A stretch of DNA of 64,000 bases. It comes from Candidatus Latescibacterota bacterium. Its GTDB lineage: Bacteria > Latescibacterota > UBA2968 > UBA8231. Numbering within the stretch: position 1 is the first letter of the stretch; each line of letters begins with the position of its first letter. The notes beneath the pieces are model-generated. The model was given only the letters and a program-made list of their open reading frames with translations, did not search any database and was not told where the DNA came from. Location of the stretch: assembly GCA_965204725.1 (NCBI GenBank), contig OZ242005.1:1568001-1632000 (forward strand), in the 5' to 3' direction. Below are positions 3,775-23,556 of this stretch, in pieces. The position numbers and the translations under genes are program-made.

Positions 3775-5472
3775 ATGCTGTCAACGCAGGTTCTACTGGG
3801 CTTGTTGATCCCGTTGAGCACCGGCGTCGCACGGGCGGATTCGTCGGTTTACGTGCCTTTGGAGCACTGGGTGTACCGCTTTGTCGAGCGGCTCGAAGCG
3901 CACGGGCGAGCCGACGGCGGTGCCGATGGCATTAAACCATACAGCCGCAATAAAATAGTAGAGCTACTTGACGCTGTTGATAAGAAATATCGCCCCGAGC
4001 TGTCGCCGATCGAACGAGGCGAACTGGACTTGTTGCGCCGCGAGTTTACACGCGAGCATGCCTTGATTCACTATCGCGCCCGCGGCGGGGCCGTTTTCGC
4101 CGACGTTCTCGCCCGCCAACAAACCGATCGCTTTAGCGGCTGGGGCCGGTCGGCGGCCGAAGTGGTGTACCGCCATCGCGGCGGCGGCATCGTCCGCGGG
4201 CGCCTAGGCCGCAAAGTGGGCTTTCGCTTGGCTTTTGAACAGGTTCGCGAGCAAGGCTCGCGCCAGTACGTCTATCGCCACGACCTGTACGAGCGGCGGA
4301 TCGACCTGCCCCAGCTAAAGGGCCACGCGGCCGATTTTCACGAGGGCACCGCGTACGTCAAGTTCGCGGTGGGGCCGGTAGAAGTGCAGTTGGGCAAAGA
4401 CGAGGCGCTATGGGGGCCGGCCCCCGCGCAAAATTTGGGGTTGGGCAACAACGCGCCGTCGTTTAACATGATCCGCTTGCAATCGCAGTTTGGGGCCGTC
4501 AAGTTGGTCAGCATCTCGGCCGAGTTGCGTCCGTGTCCCAACCGGACCGACTCGCCGCTGTGCGCGGGGACGGCCGATTCCGTGGCGACCTATTCAGTCA
4601 ACGGCATGGTGCGCCTGTTGGACCGCCAAAAGTACTTGGCAGCCCACCGCTTAGAGATCGCGCTGACCCCGTGGCTCGACTTGGGTTTTCAGGAGTTGGT
4701 AGTGTACGGCGATCGGGGACTAGAGCCTAGCTATGTGAACCCACTGATGTTCTACTGGGCCGCCCAGAGCCACCTAGGCGACAAGGACAACCTCCTGATG
4801 GGCATAGACTTGGACATTCATCCGGGGCGCGGGCGGCGCTATTATCTGGCCTATTTGGTGGATGACCTGAAGAAGGCCCGCATCTTTTCCAATGATTTTG
4901 CCAACAAGTTTTCCTTGCAGGCCGGAATGCTCTGGGTCGATCCGCTGGGGTTGGCCGATTCCGAATTGCGGGCCGAATACGTGCGCCTCGAACCGTGGCT
5001 GTACTCCCATCGGTTTCCCATTAACACCTTTCGCCACTTCGACTCGCCGCTGGGGCACGCCTTGGCACCCAACAGCGACCAATGGCAATTGGGCCTGACG
5101 AAGCGGGCGGTCCGCGACGTAGAGTTCGCGGTACGTATCACGCGCAGCCGCCACGGCGACAACGAGTTAGGGGAGGACAACACCATTCGCAATGTCGGCG
5201 GCGATATGCACTATGGCTGGCGGCCGGGGGACGAGCGTGCGACCAAGCAATTCCTCGACGGGCATCGAGTGCAGCGGACCGTGCTGACCGCTGGCCTGAA
5301 CTGGCGGATTTTTCCCGATCTCCGGCTAGAGGCTCAATACGCGCAGGAGTGGGGCCGAGGCGTACCGCTGCCTCCAGCTTGGGGCCCGGCCGTACCGCTC
5401 ACGTGGCGCTCTGGTTACGGAGAGGGCCGCCAGCAGCACCTGCGCTTCGACTTGCGCTTGCACTATTTCTGA
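3775..5472 (+). CDS. Capsule assembly Wzi-family outer-membrane beta-barrel protein
   Basis: Signal-peptide-like N-terminus ending VARA, YVPLEHWVY..ERL, GKDEALWGP, AAHRLEI, PLGH motifs, C-terminal aromatic YF; start uncertain (3727-3775). Confidence 0.7.
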   Translation: MLSTQVLLGLLIPLSTGVARADSSVYVPLEHWVYRFVERLEAHGRADGGADGIKPYSRNKIVELLDAVDKKYRPELSPIERGELDLLRREFTREHALIHYRARGGAVFADVLARQQTDRFSGWGRSAAEVVYRHRGGGIVRGRLGRKVGFRLAFEQVREQGSRQYVYRHDLYERRIDLPQLKGHAADFHEGTAYVKFAVGPVEVQLGKDEALWGPAPAQNLGLGNNAPSFNMIRLQSQFGAVKLVSISAELRPCPNRTDSPLCAGTADSVATYSVNGMVRLLDRQKYLAAHRLEIALTPWLDLGFQELVVYGDRGLEPSYVNPLMFYWAAQSHLGDKDNLLMGIDLDIHPGRGRRYYLAYLVDDLKKARIFSNDFANKFSLQAGMLWVDPLGLADSELRAEYVRLEPWLYSHRFPINTFRHFDSPLGHALAPNSDQWQLGLTKRAVRDVEFAVRITRSRHGDNELGEDNTIRNVGGDMHYGWRPGDERATKQFLDGHRVQRTVLTAGLNWRIFPDLRLEAQYAQEWGRGVPLPPAWGPAVPLTWRSGYGEGRQQHLRFDLRLHYF

Positions 5473-16978: not shown

Positions 16979-18421
16979 TCAAATGCCCAAGCGGTTTTTA
17001 TAAGGCAAAGGGCGGCCCTCCGCATCGAGTAAGGGCTGCGGCGGCGCCTTCTTTTGGGTTCGCAAGCTGACGATTACTAAGGCGAGGGCCGAAAAAGGCA
17101 CGGCCAAAAGGTCGGCCGGCAAATTCGCTGGGATCCTCTCCAGCACCTGCCAAGCACACAGGCCGACCGCTATGGAAGCTAAGGCCCCAGGGCCGTTGCT
17201 CTTGGGCCACCACAAACCAGCGGTTAGCGGGACGAACAGCGAGGCGAGGAGCACGGACCAAGAATTGACCATCAAGTCGTACACCGAAGCGGTGCGGAGG
17301 GCCAACAGTAAAGATGCCGCGCCCAACAGGAGGACGGACCAGCGCGTCAGGCGCAGCGACGACCGTTCCTCGGCATTGGGTTTGAAGTAGCGCAGGACAT
17401 CCCAGCCAATGACACTCGCTGGAGCGAGGAGGGCGCTGTCGGCGCTGGACAGGAGGGCCGAGACGAGGGCCCCCATAAAGAGGACCAAGGCTAGATCCGG
17501 GAGGTACTCTAGTGCGAGGGCCATCATAACCAGATCGGGATCGGCCAAATCTGGCAGGACGACCGCACCCGCCATACCGAGAAAAACGGGCAATAGCCCG
17601 ACCGTTATATAAAGCAGCCCAGCGAGGTACGCGCTGCGGTACGCCACCGTTTCGTCGCGGCTGGACAGACTGCGCTGGATTAGGTCTTGACCCGCTAGGT
17701 TGCCGAGGCCAATGACCAGCCAGTCGCGCGCATATACCAACCAACTGGCCGCGTCGCCGCGCGGGTAGAAATCGAAGCGGGAGGCCGGGATTGAGGTGAC
17801 GAGGGCCTCCCAGCCCCCCATGTCGCTGAGGAGGATCGGCGTCAAAATAAACAATCCCAGTACGAGGATGGTCACTTGAATGAAGTCGGTTAGCGTGACG
17901 GCCCACATGCCACCGGCCCAAGTGTAGATCAGTACAATGACTGCGGCGGCGCAGATGCCGAAGGCGGGATCGATGCCGGTCAGGCTCTGTAGAATCCGCC
18001 CAAAGGCGACCAACAGCGAGCCAACCCAGCCGATATAGGCGGGAATGGTGCAGAGGCTGGCCAGCAGGCCCGCCCGCGGGCCGAAGCGGCGGCTAAAAAA
18101 GGACGCTATTGTCATCAAGCCCATGCGCCGCATCATGCGGACGTACAAGAGACCGGCGATGAATAGGCACAAAGCCGCGCCAAAAGGGTCGGCAATGACC
18201 GCGAGGATGCCGCCTTTGTAGGCAGCACTCGCCGCGCCAATGCAGATGCCACCGCCAAACCACGTCGCAGCGAGCGTTGCAGTGCAGAGCAACAGGGGCA
18301 GGCGTTGGCCAGCGACGATGAAGTCCGTCGAGTTGTGGACTCGGCGACCAGCGTATAAGCCAACGCCAAGCATCACCGCCAGATAGACAACCAAGCCGGT
18401 CAAGACCAAGGGATTCGCCAT
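16979..18421 (-). CDS. Sodium:solute symporter (SSS family)
   Basis: DFIVAG, LAATWFGG, YTWAGGMWAVTLTD, QDLIQR, SALLSSADS; about 13 TM segments. Confidence 0.92.
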   Translation of the reverse strand: MANPLVLTGLVVYLAVMLGVGLYAGRRVHNSTDFIVAGQRLPLLLCTATLAATWFGGGICIGAASAAYKGGILAVIADPFGAALCLFIAGLLYVRMMRRMGLMTIASFFSRRFGPRAGLLASLCTIPAYIGWVGSLLVAFGRILQSLTGIDPAFGICAAAVIVLIYTWAGGMWAVTLTDFIQVTILVLGLFILTPILLSDMGGWEALVTSIPASRFDFYPRGDAASWLVYARDWLVIGLGNLAGQDLIQRSLSSRDETVAYRSAYLAGLLYITVGLLPVFLGMAGAVVLPDLADPDLVMMALALEYLPDLALVLFMGALVSALLSSADSALLAPASVIGWDVLRYFKPNAEERSSLRLTRWSVLLLGAASLLLALRTASVYDLMVNSWSVLLASLFVPLTAGLWWPKSNGPGALASIAVGLCAWQVLERIPANLPADLLAVPFSALALVIVSLRTQKKAPPQPLLDAEGRPLPYKNRLGI

Positions 18422-18447
18422 GGCAAGATCCTTTTTGAAAATTTGTT

Positions 18448-18476
18448 ATAATAACCAACAGCGTGAAACTGGCCAA
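18448..18476 (-). promoter_or_regulatory. Candidate sigma70 promoter of the SSS gene, overlapping enhancer site I
   Basis: Minus strand TTGGCC (18476-18471)-17 bp-TATTAT (18453-18448). Confidence 0.5.
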
Positions 18477-18505
18477 TGACGCCAACCCAGTGGCGAATCT
18501 GGCCA
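18470..18505. promoter_or_regulatory. Tandem PspF-type upstream activating sequences
   Basis: TGGCCAATGACGCCA (18470-18484) and TGGCGAATCTGGCCA (18491-18505), both TGGC-N7-GCCA palindromes, 21 bp apart, about 110-130 bp upstream of the predicted start site. Confidence 0.65.
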
Positions 18506-18582
18506 TTATTAAGCGATAATTCGATCTATGTTTTTCCTATAATACGATGGGCTGTAACAAATTATGGATACGATAGCACTTT

Positions 18583-18598
18583 TGGCACAGTCCTTGCA
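18583..18598 (+). promoter_or_regulatory. Sigma54 (-24/-12) promoter of the pspA operon
   Basis: TGGCACAGTCCTTGCA, GG-N10-GC spacing exact. Confidence 0.85.
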
Positions 18599-18649
18599 AG
18601 TTAGAAACAACACGCGATAAGCTCCACTCAAATCCAAGGGAGGCATGCG

Positions 18650-19324
18650 ATGGCTAAAGGAGCCTTAGCGAGGATAAGCGATATCCTCAAGTCCAATATC
18701 AACGAGATGCTCGACCGAGCGGAAGAGCCAGACAAGATGATCCGCCAGATGGTGCGGGACATGGAAGAGGCGGTCGGCAAGGCCACGGCCTCGGTAGGGA
18801 CCGCTGTGGCCAACCACAAGCGGCTCGAGCGCCAGTTCAACGACAAGCAAAGCCAGATCGCCGAGTGGCAGCGCAAGGCCGAACGGGCGGTGGCAGCGGG
18901 CGAGGACGCGCTGGCGCGCCGGGCGCTGGAGCGCAAGGCGGTGTTGGCCAAAGCGGCCGAGGATTTGGCGCCGGCCTTGGAGGAGAGTCGGCAGACGGCC
19001 GAGCAGTTGCGCGAGCAGTTGCGCGAACTAAAGACCAAGCTCGAAGAAGCGCGGACCCGACAGGGCACGTTGGTCGCCCGCCACCAAGCGGCTCAGGCCC
19101 GCAAGCGTCTGGCCCAGAGCATTTCTGGATTGGGTCAGGATGCCTTTTCCAGCTTTGAACGCTTTGAGCAGAAAGTCGCAGAGAGCGAGGCCGAGGCGGC
19201 CGCGCACGTAGAGGTTTCGGGCGAGATGGAAGACGTTGAGAAAGAAATCCGCCAAATCGAGGTTGATCACAGCGTTGACGATGAATTGAAAGCGCTAAAG
19301 GACAAGATGAAAAAGGATAAGTAA
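18650..19324 (+). CDS. pspA: Phage shock protein A (PspA/IM30 family)
   Basis: RISDILKSNINEMLDRAEEP, AVAAGEDALARRAL, FSSFERFE, VDDELKALK; coiled coil; GGGAGG SD. Confidence 0.93.
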   Translation: MAKGALARISDILKSNINEMLDRAEEPDKMIRQMVRDMEEAVGKATASVGTAVANHKRLERQFNDKQSQIAEWQRKAERAVAAGEDALARRALERKAVLAKAAEDLAPALEESRQTAEQLREQLRELKTKLEEARTRQGTLVARHQAAQARKRLAQSISGLGQDAFSSFERFEQKVAESEAEAAAHVEVSGEMEDVEKEIRQIEVDHSVDDELKALKDKMKKDK

Positions 19325-19370
19325 TCCTTTGGTCTGCAACGCATTATGCGATATTTCTAGCAGGTGAGCT

Positions 19371-19886
19371 ATGAAATTCATCGACGAAGCCAACCTCAAG
19401 GTAAGCAGTGCTGTAGAGAGCGGGTGCAAGCGTTTAGGCGCTCTGTTTCTCAAGGTGCTGGCCGTACCGATTGTGCCAATAGGGCTGGGGCTTATGCTCT
19501 ACGGGCTTTTTCAGATGCTTAGGCCCTCCGCTTCAGACCACCCCTCTTTCGAACTCTTCGCCGTTGGCGTCACGCAGGTCATCTTCGGCAGCTTGCTCTG
19601 GCTATTGGCCAAAAAACTCGATGCGGCCGCGCACCTGCTACGCTACCGGCGGCAGCAAAACCGCGTCGTGCGTTTGGCTAGGCAGCGCGGTGGCCGCCTG
19701 ACGGCGACCGAAACGGCGGCCGATACCGGGCTGACGGTTGAGGAAGCCGCGGAGATTCTCAAGCGTTTGGCCGACGGAGGGTTTGTCGAGGTCGAAATAA
19801 CCGATTCGGGCCTTATTGTCTATCGCTTTCCAGAAGTGCTTTTCGCGCACGAAAAACGCTGGAGCCGGGGCGTCGAAAGCGCCTGA
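19371..19886 (+). CDS. Two-TM membrane protein with C-terminal winged-helix-like domain
   Basis: Two hydrophobic helices then GGRLTATETAADTGLTVEEAAEILKRLADGGFVEVEITDSGLIVYRF helix-turn-helix plus beta-hairpin pattern. Confidence 0.75.
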   Translation: MKFIDEANLKVSSAVESGCKRLGALFLKVLAVPIVPIGLGLMLYGLFQMLRPSASDHPSFELFAVGVTQVIFGSLLWLLAKKLDAAAHLLRYRRQQNRVVRLARQRGGRLTATETAADTGLTVEEAAEILKRLADGGFVEVEITDSGLIVYRFPEVLFAHEKRWSRGVESA

Positions 19887-19924
19887 GTCCGTGCCATCCG
19901 CGCTCACGGCTGGCGCGGACTCAG
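19883..19924 (+). other. Intra-operon stem-loop without U tail
   Basis: CTGAGTCCGTGCCA..TGGCGCGGACTCAG 14-bp stem (one G-U). Confidence 0.6.
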
Positions 19925-19959
19925 ATCGACCGGATTGAGGCGAGGGAAAGGAGCTAATC

Positions 19960-20334
19960 ATGGATAAGAATAAGGGGATCATCTTTGGGGTCTTTATTGG
20001 TATCGCGTTGTGCGTACTTTTTTACGTTGCGTTTGCCAGCTATCCTGTTGGTCGTCTGATGGGGCCTGTCATTCTGACGCTGTCCTTAGGGGCTGTGGCT
20101 ATTTTTCTCTTGTTGGCGGTCGTAGCTATTTTTGCTATCGCCAAAAAGGCAACCGTATCCGAGGATAAGGGTATTGAGCGAGACGAACTGCGAGAGCGAT
20201 TGGTCGCAGTTGAGCAGCGGCTGACGGAGGTGCAGGACGTGATGATCGTCCTTAGCGAAAAGATCGACCGGATGGAGGGAGCCGGAGCTGAGCCGTGGAG
20301 TGCCAAGAACGACGAGATCAAGGCTAGCCCGTGA
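19960..20334 (+). CDS. Two-TM membrane protein with cytoplasmic coiled coil (PspB-like topology)
   Basis: Two hydrophobic helices, then ELRERLVAVEQRLTEVQDVMIVLSEKIDRM heptads; AAGGAG SD. Confidence 0.75.
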   Translation: MDKNKGIIFGVFIGIALCVLFYVAFASYPVGRLMGPVILTLSLGAVAIFLLLAVVAIFAIAKKATVSEDKGIERDELRERLVAVEQRLTEVQDVMIVLSEKIDRMEGAGAEPWSAKNDEIKASP

Positions 20335-21686
20335 ATTGGCGCGACCACGCTGTACAGGCTTGTGAAGATGCGCGTTGGGCCGAGGCGTTGGAGTGGTGCG
20401 AGCGCGGCCTAGCCGAGGTGCCCGACGACTTGGAGCTTTGGCACTGCAAAGGGCGTTGTCTCTTGGAACTGGGGGACGAGCAAGCGGCCGTCGCCGCGCT
20501 GGAAGCGGCTGCGGCGGGCGGACATCTAGCAAGCCATTACCAACTCGGCTTACTCGCAATGCGCCAAGGGCGGCGGAATGCCCGGTTCCGCGAGCGGTCC
20601 CTGACGCACTTTGAGGCCATTGTGTGCGCGGCCGAAAAAGGGCGCGAATACCCCGACCTCGACCGCGTCTTTTTCGCGCTCGGCAGCCAGTACGGCGAAG
20701 ATCCGCAGCGGCGCGGAGAAGCCATCCGAGCGTACCGCCAAGGATTGGCACTCAACCCGCTCTCCGCTGTTGGCCACAACAGCTTGGGCCAGCTCTTGCT
20801 GCAAAGCGGTCAGGTGCTGGGGGCGATGGGGGAGTTCAAGGTCGCCATCCAACTCGACCCCAAGCTCAGTCAGCCATACGCAAATTTGTCCCGTTTGTTT
20901 TTTTCCCACGTAAAACTCTCTGAATTAGAACAAGAATACCAGCATATCTGCGAGGAATTCGCGCAAAGTGCTCCGCAAGTTCTCGCGCGTTTGTCGCTGG
21001 CAATGGTTGAGTTGGGCAAAGAGCAGGTGTACGAAGGGTTTTACACCAAGGGACATCGCATCAAAAACCTGATGGGGATCATCGGCAGCCGCTTGCGGGG
21101 ACTGGGACGCAAGGCCGCAGGCGAGCAGCAGGGGGAGTTGAATCGCTTAGGAGGCGAATACGAGGCCCTGTACGACGAATGGGTGGGGTTCTTAGAAGCG
21201 ATGAAAACGGATAAAATTTTCCCGGCGGTGACCGATCTCGGGCGCTTGGTGCGCCGGGTGGCGGCCGGATTGGACCGCCAAACGTGGAAATCCGCGATTC
21301 AGACGCGGGTCCAAGCGGGCTTGCCGCGCGTGGAAGCCGACGAGCGGATGTTGCGCGAGGCTATTACGAACCTCTGCCTCAACGCGCTGGAAACTCTCGA
21401 AGAAGGACCGGGCGGCCGGGTGGTGCTGGGCACTGGCTACGACGAGGAGCAGTCGCTGGCCTTTATAGAGGTCGAGGACGACGGGCCGGGCATTGAGGAA
21501 GAGCATTTGGAATTGATATTCGAGCCTGGATTTACCACCAGAGAGCGGGGCAATGGCTATGGCTTGAGCATTGCGCGCCGCATCGCCCAAGCCCATCAAG
21601 GCATATTGCGCGTCAAGAGCAGAAAGGGACATGGAACCGTTTTTCGGCTCGATCTGCCGCTCAATTTCGCGGGCGGTGCGCCCTAG
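20331..21686 (+). CDS. Soluble TPR-repeat sensor histidine kinase
   Basis: N-terminal TPRs (AVGHNSLGQLL..AIQLDPK), H-box GHRIKNL, N-box NLCLNALE, G1 EDDGPGI, F IFEPGFTT, G2 GNGYGLSI; no TM. Confidence 0.9.
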   Translation: MNWRDHAVQACEDARWAEALEWCERGLAEVPDDLELWHCKGRCLLELGDEQAAVAALEAAAAGGHLASHYQLGLLAMRQGRRNARFRERSLTHFEAIVCAAEKGREYPDLDRVFFALGSQYGEDPQRRGEAIRAYRQGLALNPLSAVGHNSLGQLLLQSGQVLGAMGEFKVAIQLDPKLSQPYANLSRLFFSHVKLSELEQEYQHICEEFAQSAPQVLARLSLAMVELGKEQVYEGFYTKGHRIKNLMGIIGSRLRGLGRKAAGEQQGELNRLGGEYEALYDEWVGFLEAMKTDKIFPAVTDLGRLVRRVAAGLDRQTWKSAIQTRVQAGLPRVEADERMLREAITNLCLNALETLEEGPGGRVVLGTGYDEEQSLAFIEVEDDGPGIEEEHLELIFEPGFTTRERGNGYGLSIARRIAQAHQGILRVKSRKGHGTVFRLDLPLNFAGGAP

Positions 21687-21721
21687 CCTTTCAGGGGTCA
21701 GGGGTTAAATGGAGGACGGGC

Positions 21722-23140
21722 ATGAAAAGTAAAAAACAGAAGTCGGTCTTAATCGCCGATGACCAGCGGGAATTGCGCGATATGTTGGGGGAGAAACTGC
21801 GCAGCTTGGGCAAGGAAGTCATCTCGTTTTCCAACGGCCAGCGGTTGCTCGGGCATTTAGCAGCTAGGCCAACGGATGTCGAGCTTGTGGTGCTCGATTT
21901 GGACTTTGGCGTTGGCCAGCCCAATGGCCTCGAAGTGCTGAAAGAGATCAAAAAGCACTGGGCCGAGTTGCCCGTTATTATTCTCACCGGCAAGGGAAGC
22001 ATTGACTTGGCGGTCGAAGCCGTGCAGGCCGGGGCGGCCGACTTTATCGAGAAGGACTTGTACGTTGAAGACAAGCTCGAAGTGGAAATGGAAAAGGTCG
22101 AGCGGATGCTGGTGGTATTGCGCGAAAATGCCCGTCTCAAGGCCGAGAACGAGGCCCTAGACCGCGATAACACCTTTTATCGGACCCAGCTAGGCCAGCG
22201 CTATCAGATCGTCAGTTCCAGTCCCCTGATTCAGAACCTACTAGAGCAAGTTGAACAGATCGCCTCCATACCGAGGCCGGTGTTGATCCGCGGCGAGCGC
22301 GGCACTGGCAAGGAGTTGATCGCCGCGGCCTTGCACTACGGGAGCAATCGCCGCGCACGGGCCTTTGTCAAGACCAACTGCGCGGCGCTGTCGGATACCC
22401 TACTCGAAAGCGAGCTGTTTGGCCACGAAAAGGGGGCCTTTACGGGCGCGAACCAAATGCGCCACGGTCGCTTTGAAGCGGCCGATGGCGGGACGCTTTT
22501 TCTCGACGAGATCGGCAACACGTCACTGGAATTCCAAAAAAATGTATTGCGCGTCATAGAATACCAAGAATTTGAACGCATCGGCGGGAGCCAGACGATC
22601 CGCGTTGACGTGCGCGTCGTGGCAGCGACCAACGCGGATCTGGAGGGGGAAATAGCCAGCGGGCAATTCCGCGCCGACCTCTACGACCGCCTGCGGTTTA
22701 GCGTCCTCCAACTGCCCCCCTTGCGGGAGCGGCCCGAGGACATCCGGCCCTTGGTGGCGTACTTTACTCAGCAGCTATGCGACGAAGTTCCGGCGATTGA
22801 ACGACGCTCGTTCGCCAAAGACGTTTTGGCCAAGCTAGAGACCTACGCTTGGCCGGGGAATGTGCGCGAGCTCAAATTCGCGGTCGAGCGCGCCCTCTGC
22901 GTGGCGCAAGGGAGCGAAGTGGTCGTGGAGGACTTGCCCCCGGAAGTGCGCGGCGGCCGGGGCGTCGTCCTTTCTGAAGGAGGCCGTTTCGACGAGCAAG
23001 TCGCGCACGTTGAGCGAGGATTGCTCGATGGCGCACTGGCGCAGGCGGGCGGGCGGCAGAAAGACGCGGCCCAGCAATTGGGCTTGACCTACGACCGCTT
23101 TCGGCACTTGCTCCGCAAATACCAAATCACGACCAAATGA
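21722..23140 (+). CDS. Sigma54-dependent response regulator: receiver + PspF-clade AAA+ + HTH
   Basis: ADD / VVLD / ILT / IEK receiver residues; GERGTGKE, GAFTGA, LRVIEY, RADLYDRL, LGLTYDRFRHLLRKYQI resemble PspF. Confidence 0.92.
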   Translation: MKSKKQKSVLIADDQRELRDMLGEKLRSLGKEVISFSNGQRLLGHLAARPTDVELVVLDLDFGVGQPNGLEVLKEIKKHWAELPVIILTGKGSIDLAVEAVQAGAADFIEKDLYVEDKLEVEMEKVERMLVVLRENARLKAENEALDRDNTFYRTQLGQRYQIVSSSPLIQNLLEQVEQIASIPRPVLIRGERGTGKELIAAALHYGSNRRARAFVKTNCAALSDTLLESELFGHEKGAFTGANQMRHGRFEAADGGTLFLDEIGNTSLEFQKNVLRVIEYQEFERIGGSQTIRVDVRVVAATNADLEGEIASGQFRADLYDRLRFSVLQLPPLRERPEDIRPLVAYFTQQLCDEVPAIERRSFAKDVLAKLETYAWPGNVRELKFAVERALCVAQGSEVVVEDLPPEVRGGRGVVLSEGGRFDEQVAHVERGLLDGALAQAGGRQKDAAQQLGLTYDRFRHLLRKYQITTK

Positions 23141-23168
23141 CCTGCCGCGTCCTCTGGGCCGAGCCTTA

Positions 23169-23196
23169 TTGACAGTGGGAACGCGCCGGGTATATT
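23169..23196 (+). promoter_or_regulatory. Sigma70-type promoter
   Basis: TTGACA-16 bp-TATATT upstream of 23233. Confidence 0.6.
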
Positions 23197-23232
23197 AACC
23201 GCAGGCGCAGGCTCCCACCCGGGCGAGAGGGC

Positions 23233-23556
23233 ATGGAAAAAGTTTACAAAGTCGAAACCACACTTTCTCACAGCTTGGCCGAACTCTATGCTAGCCTCGA
23301 AGAAGAGTTCGCCAAGAAGAGCAGCATCCCCCTCTCGGACATGAACCGCACGTTGTTGCAAACGGGCTTAATCCACCATCTGACGATGATGAGCGGGTTG
23401 GGGCTGATCGAGCCGGAGAAGGCCGCTAGGCTGCATGCGTTGATCGACCAAGTAGCCAAGGATACCATACTCTATGACCTCTTGCAGATGGTGCGGACCT
23501 ACTGGCGGGATTGCGGTTCGGGTGGTCCGGGCGGCTCCGGCGGCCTCAACGCTTGA
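23233..23556 (+). CDS. Hypothetical protein (107 aa)
   Basis: ATG with GAGAGG SD, own promoter, protein-like composition. Confidence 0.7.
   Translation: MEKVYKVETTLSHSLAELYASLEEEFAKKSSIPLSDMNRTLLQTGLIHHLTMMSGLGLIEPEKAARLHALIDQVAKDTILYDLLQMVRTYWRDCGSGGPGGSGGLNA

Follow-up and report, generated by a model that had tools for sequence, protein, structure and literature searches.

A 64,000-nt stretch of the genome of a Candidatus Latescibacterota bacterium (contig OZ242005.1, positions 1,568,001 to 1,632,000; hereafter the window) carries five plus-strand genes that probably make up a PspA-centred membrane-stress operon, in which sigma-54 would be served by a PspF-clade activator with a receiver domain, this activator would be controlled by a soluble tetratricopeptide repeat (TPR) histidine kinase, and PspA would feed back at the kinase. 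The Psp response is the textbook model for the sensing of inner-membrane damage and for an AAA+ activator that is held off in trans by its own product, and to our knowledge almost all mechanistic information on it comes from enterobacteria. The genes are pspA (18650-19324), coding for a PspA/IM30 (bacterial ESCRT-III) effector of 224 aa (PF04012, 158 bits), two membrane-protein genes here called TM1 (19371-19886) and TM2 (19960-20334), the kinase gene (20331-21686, 451 aa, TPR repeats and HATPase_c) and the activator gene (21722-23140, 472 aa), with gaps of 46, 73, -4 and 35 nt between them. A first-pass annotation of the region had described a sigma-54 promoter, paired palindromes and five same-strand genes, all of which were recovered at the positions it gave, and had read them as a hybrid of PspA, a kinase-controlled PspF and sigma-54, an architecture that is supported by the clade of the activator, the gene linkage and the promoter comparisons given below. 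Beyond those earlier claims we describe the apparent loss of residue W56, a predicted contact between PspA and the kinase, and a putative second target operon.

The activator combines a receiver (REC; Response_reg, residues 9 to 114) with Sigma54_activat (220 bits), AAA_lid_14 and HTH_8. Its translation contains GAFTGA, Walker A and B motifs, a Fis-type helix-turn-helix (HTH) and every one of the PspF-type signature strings listed in the first-pass annotation. The best NCBIfam model is PspF (TIGR02974, an equivalog), with 367.2 bits over residues 165 to 404, which is below the cutoff of 443.55 bits and closely followed by AtoC (362) and NtrC (356). Trees of the AAA+ domain were built from the window activator, its class orthologs, the 14 other activators of the genome, 13 activators of E. 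coli K-12 (the pspF locus, eight named by NCBIfam above cutoff, two unnamed ones, L068 and L073, and the loci labelled rtcR and dhaR) and single-domain representatives from the 150 best matches among 1.84 billion proteins. Three were computed: a FastTree of 171 rows, a quick IQ-TREE of 95 rows and a careful IQ-TREE of 94 rows (LG+C20 PMSF), from which the rtcR- and dhaR-labelled loci were dropped as long branches. In the careful tree, whose bootstrap had not fully settled, a clade of 40 rows joins the window activator with E. coli PspF (ultrafast bootstrap 100, SH-aLRT 100), and it splits into two sister groups. The first is made of 12 REC-less proteins of about 256 to 363 aa that include E. 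coli PspF (support 100/99). The second has 28 rows, i.e., the window activator and eight orthologs, 15 representatives of 450 to 492 aa and four short forms of 283 to 344 aa. AtoC, ZraR, NtrC, GlrR, NorR, FhlA, PrpR, TyrR, L068, L073 and all 14 paralogs of the genome fall outside. Both other trees agree with this picture; the rtcR-labelled locus was outside the PspF clade in the quick tree, and it and the dhaR-labelled one were both outside in the FastTree. The earlier proposal that the AAA+ domain would group with PspF and not with NtrC or ZraR was thus borne out. By its sequence, the activator is a member of the PspF clade but not a canonical PspF.

The signature residues of the clade follow the same division. 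The arginine of GERGTGK was present in 45 of 52 PspF-clade rows (the remaining seven have proline) and in none of 119 other activators. At the position of E. coli PspF residue 56, tryptophan was found in 12/12 REC-less rows of the clade, in 0/119 other activators and in 0/40 rows of the REC clade (the window protein, which has arginine there, its 20 orthologs and 19 others). The W56A change in E. coli PspF abolishes PspA binding and negative control (PMC3709507), and a W56 loop is also mentioned in PMC6003685. Since W56 is absent from all the REC-clade rows and present in all the REC-less ones, its loss would fit a replacement of control and not an addition to it. This distribution also bears on a form of dual control in which PspA still inhibits the activator directly, away from the W56 loop, and the kinase is a second, independent input. 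Such an arrangement would be in keeping with an AAA+ domain of PspF type and with evidence reported in PMC6003685 that E. coli PspF binds PspA at a second site as well, but the clean partition of W56 fits replacement better, and we regard dual control as improbable.

Regarding the receiver, residues D13, D14, D59, D61, T89 and K111 are invariant in 20/20 orthologs, so the N-terminal domain that the first-pass annotation had called intact (acidic pair, phosphoacceptor aspartate, threonine and lysine) is so throughout. It is D61, not D59, that aligns with D54 of E. coli NtrC, and D61 is the likely phospho-acceptor. Several other REC-bearing lineages of the PspF clade (P0147, P0145, P0152, P0142, P0158, P0169, P0128 and P0134 in alignment A1) are without the acidic pocket or the phospho-acceptor context. 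These degenerate domains look like pseudo-receivers, which suggests phosphorylation-independent control in those lineages. The best matches in the PDB over REC plus AAA+ were 4l4u and 1ny5, both titled “Transcriptional regulator (NtrC family)”; the latter we take to be Aquifex NtrC1.

No hydrophobic segment was found in the kinase, which is accordingly a soluble protein, with a TPR sensor over roughly residues 1 to 215. The H-box, Y..GH(R/Q)(I/L)KN, is invariant and places the phospho-histidine at His242 (as read from the alignment); it was kept, together with the N, G1, F and G2 boxes, in 23/23 aligned kinases including two distant loci, while the Pfam HisKA model gave no match in the protein. 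Within the sensor the most conserved parts are TPR residues 136 to 177 and 202 to 210. With its gene ending only 35 nt upstream of that of the activator, the protein would be the cognate kinase. The pair resembles NtrC-type systems (NtrBC, ZraSR, AtoSC and Aquifex NtrC1) in the REC-AAA+-HTH_8 order, the adjacent kinase and the H-x-x-K-N H-box. It differs from them in an AAA+ domain that lies outside the NtrC, ZraR and AtoC clades, in having TPR as the sensor of the kinase and in having pspA as the target.

The partner of this sensor is predicted to be PspA itself. The window PspA scored 155 bits against TIGR02977, below the cutoff of 243 (and was also below that of NF007974). One pair was modelled, kinase residues 1 to 225 with PspA, each with an alignment of 17 rows, and it was picked because PspA is the only partner common to all the lineages and the activator is without W56. 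The complex reached a score of 0.61 (runs of 0.58, 0.61 and 0.63), compared with 0.00 for the best of three controls; at least 69% of the contacts recur between runs, and the partner pLDDT is at least 71. In the calibration of this score, 58/80 solved complexes and 2/110 mismatched pairs reach the mark, figures that apply only roughly here given that our own alignments were used. In the model, the alpha1/alpha2 hairpin of PspA (residues 9 to 14, 41 to 62 and 108 to 123) sits against kinase residues 108 to 177 and 205 to 213, on the most conserved face of the TPR domain. Invariant residues are enriched on both sides of the interface, 11 of 29 in the kinase compared with 24 of 225 overall (p 2e-5) and 15 of 26 in PspA compared with 76 of 224 overall (p 0.007). 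Of the 26 PspA interface residues, 17 are kept by a PspA paralog that appears to be co-regulated (85/224 identical overall; see below), only four by the unlinked paralog (63/224) and four by E. coli PspA (72/224). In the PDB, the proteins related in sequence to the TPR part are OGT, designed repeat proteins and further TPR proteins. PspA is named in none of their entry titles, so the contact is unlikely to be the memory of a solved complex of that kind. We thus predict that PspA binds the TPR domain of the kinase.

The Lia system of Bacillus subtilis works with the housekeeping sigma factor. LiaIH-LiaGFSR resembles the operon described here in that its PspA-family effector is encoded in a single operon together with small membrane proteins and a two-component system that is autoregulated (PMC11237479, PMC9239133). 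Its kinase, LiaS, is however membrane-bound and its regulator, LiaR, is of REC-wHTH type (PMC11237479), whereas here we find a soluble TPR kinase and a sigma-54 AAA+ activator, and Pfam and NCBIfam gave no match of TM1 or TM2 to the LiaF, LiaI or Toastrack families. A Lia-like logic would leave PspA as an output only, with the TPR kinase sensing something else, e.g., the TM2 helix, the TM1 winged helix or a soluble ligand, and no PspA feedback at all. Both membrane genes are conserved next to pspA (TM1 in 20/20 class loci, TM2 in 14/20 by tblastn), both proteins have highly conserved parts that are predicted to be cytoplasmic, TPR domains often bind short helices, and in B. subtilis it is a membrane protein, LiaF, that controls the kinase (PMC11237479). 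Yet tblastn detected neither TM1 nor TM2 where the trio of kinase, activator and pspA recurs in Myxococcota-like and Armatimonadota loci, leaving PspA as the only partner shared everywhere, and the PspA-TPR model passes its controls with an interface that coincides with invariant residues. We consider the Lia-like logic unlikely, although it is the strongest competitor of feedback by PspA at the kinase.

Neither membrane protein belongs to a Pfam or NCBIfam family. In the ESM Atlas, TM1 matched only unnamed clusters (0.97, 0.94 and 0.93; Latescibacterota, Actinomycetota and Myxococcota), and so did TM2 (at most 0.84). TM1 has two long hydrophobic helices, predicted to be membrane helices, followed by a conserved C-terminal winged helix of about 70 aa that is predicted to be cytoplasmic. 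Its AlphaFold2 model (mean pLDDT 77.6) gave weak winged-helix matches in a fold search, the best at E 2e-3 and to ArsR/MarR-type domains. A more daring idea is that the membrane-anchored winged helix may be an ESCRT-II-like docking site for PspA, itself related to ESCRT-III. The fold match behind it, to a winged helix of human ESCRT-II (3cuq_A; rank 30, E 0.015, rmsd 1.7 Å over 60 residues) among many ArsR/MarR-type matches, is much too weak to build on. TM2 has a hydrophobic N-terminal part with one or two membrane helices and then the invariant helix motif RL..IE.RLTDVQDVMIALSEK.DR, which is probably cytoplasmic. Its layout is like that of PspB, but homology was rejected, with an hhalign probability of 3% and no Pfam match even at E 10. 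Some relatives carry two copies of TM2, and in seven loci (L049, L050, L052-L055 and L065) a strongly hydrophobic mini-protein of ~50 aa, ending in GGWRLL or a close variant, lies between TM2 and the kinase; it is absent from the window.

Upstream of pspA, the intergenic region (18422-18649) contains the sigma-54 promoter TGGCACagtccTTGCA at 18583-18598 on the plus strand, with -24/-12 elements TGGCAC-N5-TTGCA. It is the only perfect TGGCAC-N5-TTGCW match in the 64 kb (0.03 expected from shuffles; three of 100 shuffles reach one), and boxes with one mismatch are not above chance (2 found, 2.39 expected). One such box, TGGCGCgagccTTGCT, lies at 4250-4265 on the minus strand. Two putative enhancer sites (upstream activating sequences), 21 bp apart, precede the promoter: TGGCCAATGACGCCA at 18470-18484 and TGGCGAATCTGGCCA at 18491-18505, both of them 15-bp imperfect palindromes with one mismatch, starting 114 and 93 nt 5' of the -24 GG, respectively. 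Their motif is TGG[CT]G-N5-C[GA]CCA. Between them and the promoter is an A+T-rich spacer of 77 bp (18506-18582; 31% G+C compared with 61% in the window), which by analogy may be a bending or IHF-type region, IHF being known to assist PspF in E. coli (PMC3709507).

The promoter could be compared in 17 loci, the window and 16 others (L056, L059 and L063, where the upstream DNA lies beyond the fetched stretch, and L065 were left out). In 17/17, a GG-N10-GC box stands 64 to 111 nt before the start codon of pspA; nine of these boxes follow the strict pattern and eight were read by eye, and a looser pattern places 16/17. At least one motif site, with no more than two mismatches, lies 93 to 150 nt 5' of the -24 GG, again in 17/17, and a pair of sites with 19- to 24-nt spacing in 11/17 (shuffle mean 0.05, maximum 1 in 500). 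Conservation of the box and of at least one palindrome upstream of pspA therefore holds for every promoter compared. The same motif, applied to the pspF-pspA control region of E. coli, gives two sites at -101 and -81 from the -24 GG, a result reached by 0.6% of shuffles; the published E. coli enhancer sites are two at the pspA promoter and one at pspG (PMC3709507). A shared enhancer motif fits the near-identical recognition part of the two HTH domains (LGLTY..FR.LL.K).

Across the host genome, which has one rpoN, three PspA paralogs and about 15 sigma-54 activators, there are 385 sigma-54-like boxes. Paired motif sites, with no more than one mismatch, lie 40 to 200 nt upstream of only two of them, and both of these boxes precede pspA paralogs. 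The second one, at C1:2587596, lies before a 64-aa open reading frame (ORF), the third PspA paralog and a membrane protein, in a putative operon outside the window (C1:2587483-2588904, i.e., L003:1113-2534). Along L003, two perfect enhancer sites (1113-1127 and 1132-1146) are followed by the sigma-54 box (1226-1239), the 64-aa ORF (1284-1478), the third paralog (1489-2154) and a 149-aa ORF read as a membrane protein (2085-2534). The box and motif sites were kept in 7/7 relatives that have this paralog. The 64-aa ORF is kept in 5/7 relatives, and its helix-turn-helix resembles the DNA-binding end of the activator (11/24 residues identical); the small protein could compete for the enhancer. The remaining PspA paralog (L002:741-3688, genome about C1:1644834-1647781) is without the box and motif pair. 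Upstream of it are a CesT_Tir_1/YbjN-type protein (PF22550) and a small protein whose translation reads as having an HPD motif like that of J domains; downstream is a large ORF resembling an FAD oxidoreductase (by appearance only).

The operon appears to comprise the five genes and no more. A simple scan found no sigma-70-like promoter on the plus strand from 18300 to 23140, and one was found just after the activator stop codon, TTGACA-16-TATATT at 23169-23196 on the plus strand (11/12, a consensus match only), which likely marks the 3' boundary. Since kinase and activator are encoded within this one closely spaced operon, and no sigma-70-like promoter was found on the strand, the system would be subject to positive autoregulation.

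Taken together, these features outline a circuit in which, as the intact motifs would have it, the kinase autophosphorylates on His242 and passes the phosphate to Asp61 of the activator. The phosphorylated activator would then assemble on the two 15-bp palindromes, about 95 to 115 bp 5' of the -24 element, and open the sigma-54 promoter at 18583, giving pspA, TM1, TM2, the kinase and the activator itself, and hence positive autoregulation. The second operon, with its small HTH protein, PspA paralog and membrane protein behind the same kind of enhancer pair and sigma-54 box, would be transcribed as well. Since the W56 docking residue is missing, PspA feedback would not fall on the AAA+ domain of the activator; it is predicted to act on the kinase, with the alpha1/alpha2 hairpin bound to the conserved concave face of the TPR domain. 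If E. coli is a guide, the kinase would be kept inactive by free PspA and released once PspA is recruited to the stressed membrane, possibly through TM1/TM2, although whether PspA acts negatively or positively here is a guess.

How widespread is this module? Within the phylum, an activator match at E 1e-100 or better was present in 88 of 151 sampled genomes, with 43/64, 27/30 and 17/18 in three families (f1, f2 and f3) and 0/38 across the other eleven. The public names of its close homologs are Latescibacterota and Gemmatimonadota metagenome bins. Twenty class loci were picked for long contigs and spread over 13 genera of the three families (not at random), and by tblastn pspA, TM1, the kinase and the activator were on one strand in this order in 20/20. 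In families f2 and f3, the membrane genes and the kinase are separated by an insert of 3 to 5 kb; that of L060 (3806-6643) codes for an ECF sigma factor followed by an unnamed protein and one of the Band 7/SPFH type, and in L057 (6080-10068) an ECF sigma factor and an ISL3 transposase are inserted in the cluster. Outside the class, we scanned 80 loci among the matches listed, mostly generic activators of 36 to 48% identity, and found pspA nearby in three of them. L102 (uncultured delta proteobacterium, Myxococcota-like, with the activator cluster that it resembles named Kofleriaceae in public records) has kinase, activator, pspA, a 139-aa protein and two further ORFs, with Pfam matches to HATPase_c and PspA_IM30. 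These two ORFs, after its pspA, read as an ECF sigma factor and a one-pass, anti-sigma-like membrane protein (from translations only). In the order around L102, an ortholog of at least 64% identity was found in 47/61 genomes (46/60 without one unpublished genome), and of 28 loci with 1.5-kb flanks (that genome left out), 26 had the kinase upstream and 24 had pspA immediately downstream. In L103 (a Candidatus Zipacnadia bin, Armatimonadota), the TPR kinase and activator lie 3 kb from two pspA genes of the opposite strand; L177 has a REC-less PspF followed by pspA. The linkage of pspA, TPR kinase and REC activator proposed in the first-pass annotation is thus conserved in the class and recurs in a second, distant lineage. 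Given that the trio recurs beyond the class and that TM1 and TM2 are class-specific, kinase, activator and pspA make up the conserved core. Public sequencing runs holding at least half of the sampled words of 18400-23200 were sponge or marine metagenomes or carried coded organism names, and all were contigs.

These data leave very little room for coincidence, that is, for an ordinary NtrC-family regulator with other targets, whose PspF likeness and adjacency to pspA mean nothing, or for a phosphorylation-independent pseudo-receiver. The NtrC and AtoC models do score nearly as well as PspF, and the acidic pocket is degenerate in sister clades of the REC-bearing group. But synteny holds in three families and turns up again in a further phylum-level lineage, all 17 promoters have the sigma-54 box and enhancer in front of pspA, the only two pairs in the genome both precede pspA genes, the receiver residues do not vary among the orthologs, and the H-box of the adjacent kinase is intact. 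We hold coincidence to be very improbable.

Several other observations weigh against a kinase-controlled PspF circuit with PspA feedback. Besides the subthreshold PspF score of the activator, with AtoC and NtrC at its heels, the unnamed rows of the AAA+ trees are best matches to the query, a biased sampling, and the root was not inferred. The predicted PspA-TPR contact comes from shallow alignments of our own, and coiled coils can dock spuriously. An operon wholly reliant on its own activator would need some basal expression, and its strand was without a sigma-70-like promoter in the scan. Among the public runs matching 18400-23200, there was none recorded as RNA. Sampling of the module's range is poor, given that pspA was near the activator in only those three of the 80 loci among the matches listed. 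L102 and L103, from other phyla, gave no convincing sigma-54 box or enhancer pair (L103 has a two-mismatch box 79 nt before one pspA and one near-motif about 45 nt upstream), and the link between sigma-54 and pspA was consequently observed within the class alone. Finally, no match to PF06667 or PF04024 (PspB and PspC) was found in the host genome, but their absence is not proven since this genome is 94% complete with 10% contamination.

Compared with the enterobacterial Psp system (pspF divergent from pspABCDE, plus pspG), the likeness is in a PspA effector behind a sigma-54 promoter, an activator whose AAA+ and Fis-type HTH domains are in the PspF clade, two enhancer sites of the same half-site type at similar places (-114/-93 here, -101/-81 in E. 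coli) and another target promoter at a separate genomic location (in E. coli that of pspG, PMC3709507). On the other hand, the activator described here has an intact receiver and a cognate kinase and is without W56, its gene is downstream of pspA within the operon instead of divergent, two unrelated membrane proteins stand in place of PspB/PspC, which were not found here, and PspA is predicted to contact the kinase and not the activator. In its working parts the system is Psp-like, and in the logic of its control it resembles a two-component system. The surveys of Ravi et al. 2024, Popp et al. 2022 and Huvet et al. 2011 report PspF variants with ACT and PAS domains and REC-HTH two-component systems. 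No REC-bearing PspF or TPR kinase in a Psp context, and no description of such a hybrid, was found in the accessible parts of the literature or of the Psp surveys (PMC11237479, PMC9239133, PMC3041696, PMC4641369), whose supplements and web tables may list one.

Around the operon, a ribosome-binding site, AAGGGAGG, was read from the sequence at 18636-18643 on the plus strand, 6 nt 5' of the pspA ATG, and the other side of the intergenic region is bounded by a divergent sodium:solute symporter gene (16979-18421, minus strand, PF00474). Downstream, a 107-aa ORF without a family (23233-23556) follows behind its own sigma-70-like promoter; it was found 3' of the activator by tblastn in 9/20 loci, all of them from the window's own family. 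The genes after it resemble a NifU/IscU-type protein and a superoxide dismutase (from translations only).

As for the origin of the two arrangements, a REC-less, W56-bearing clade is sister to a mostly REC-bearing one, and the outgroups mostly have N-terminal domains. This topology is the ground for a tentative scenario, to which we give less credence than to the circuit itself, in which the kinase-controlled form (free PspA pool, TPR kinase, REC-PspF) would be the older mode of Psp control. The enterobacterial PspF would be a derived form, a short-cut in which the receiver was lost and W56 gained, letting PspA clamp the AAA+ ring directly. Whatever the direction, the operon represents a second way, itself conserved, of wiring together the same core parts (PspA, a PspF-clade activator, sigma-54 and the same type of enhancer), with the contact for negative feedback apparently shifted away from the activator and onto a dedicated, soluble kinase. 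The PspF clade thereby offers a natural experiment on the loss or gain of a regulatory domain, with W56 tracking exactly with the absence of the receiver, and two unnamed membrane-protein families and a small HTH protein are added as candidate Psp partners. Labels from automatic annotation such as “NtrC family response regulator” hide what is a coherent subfamily of PspF.

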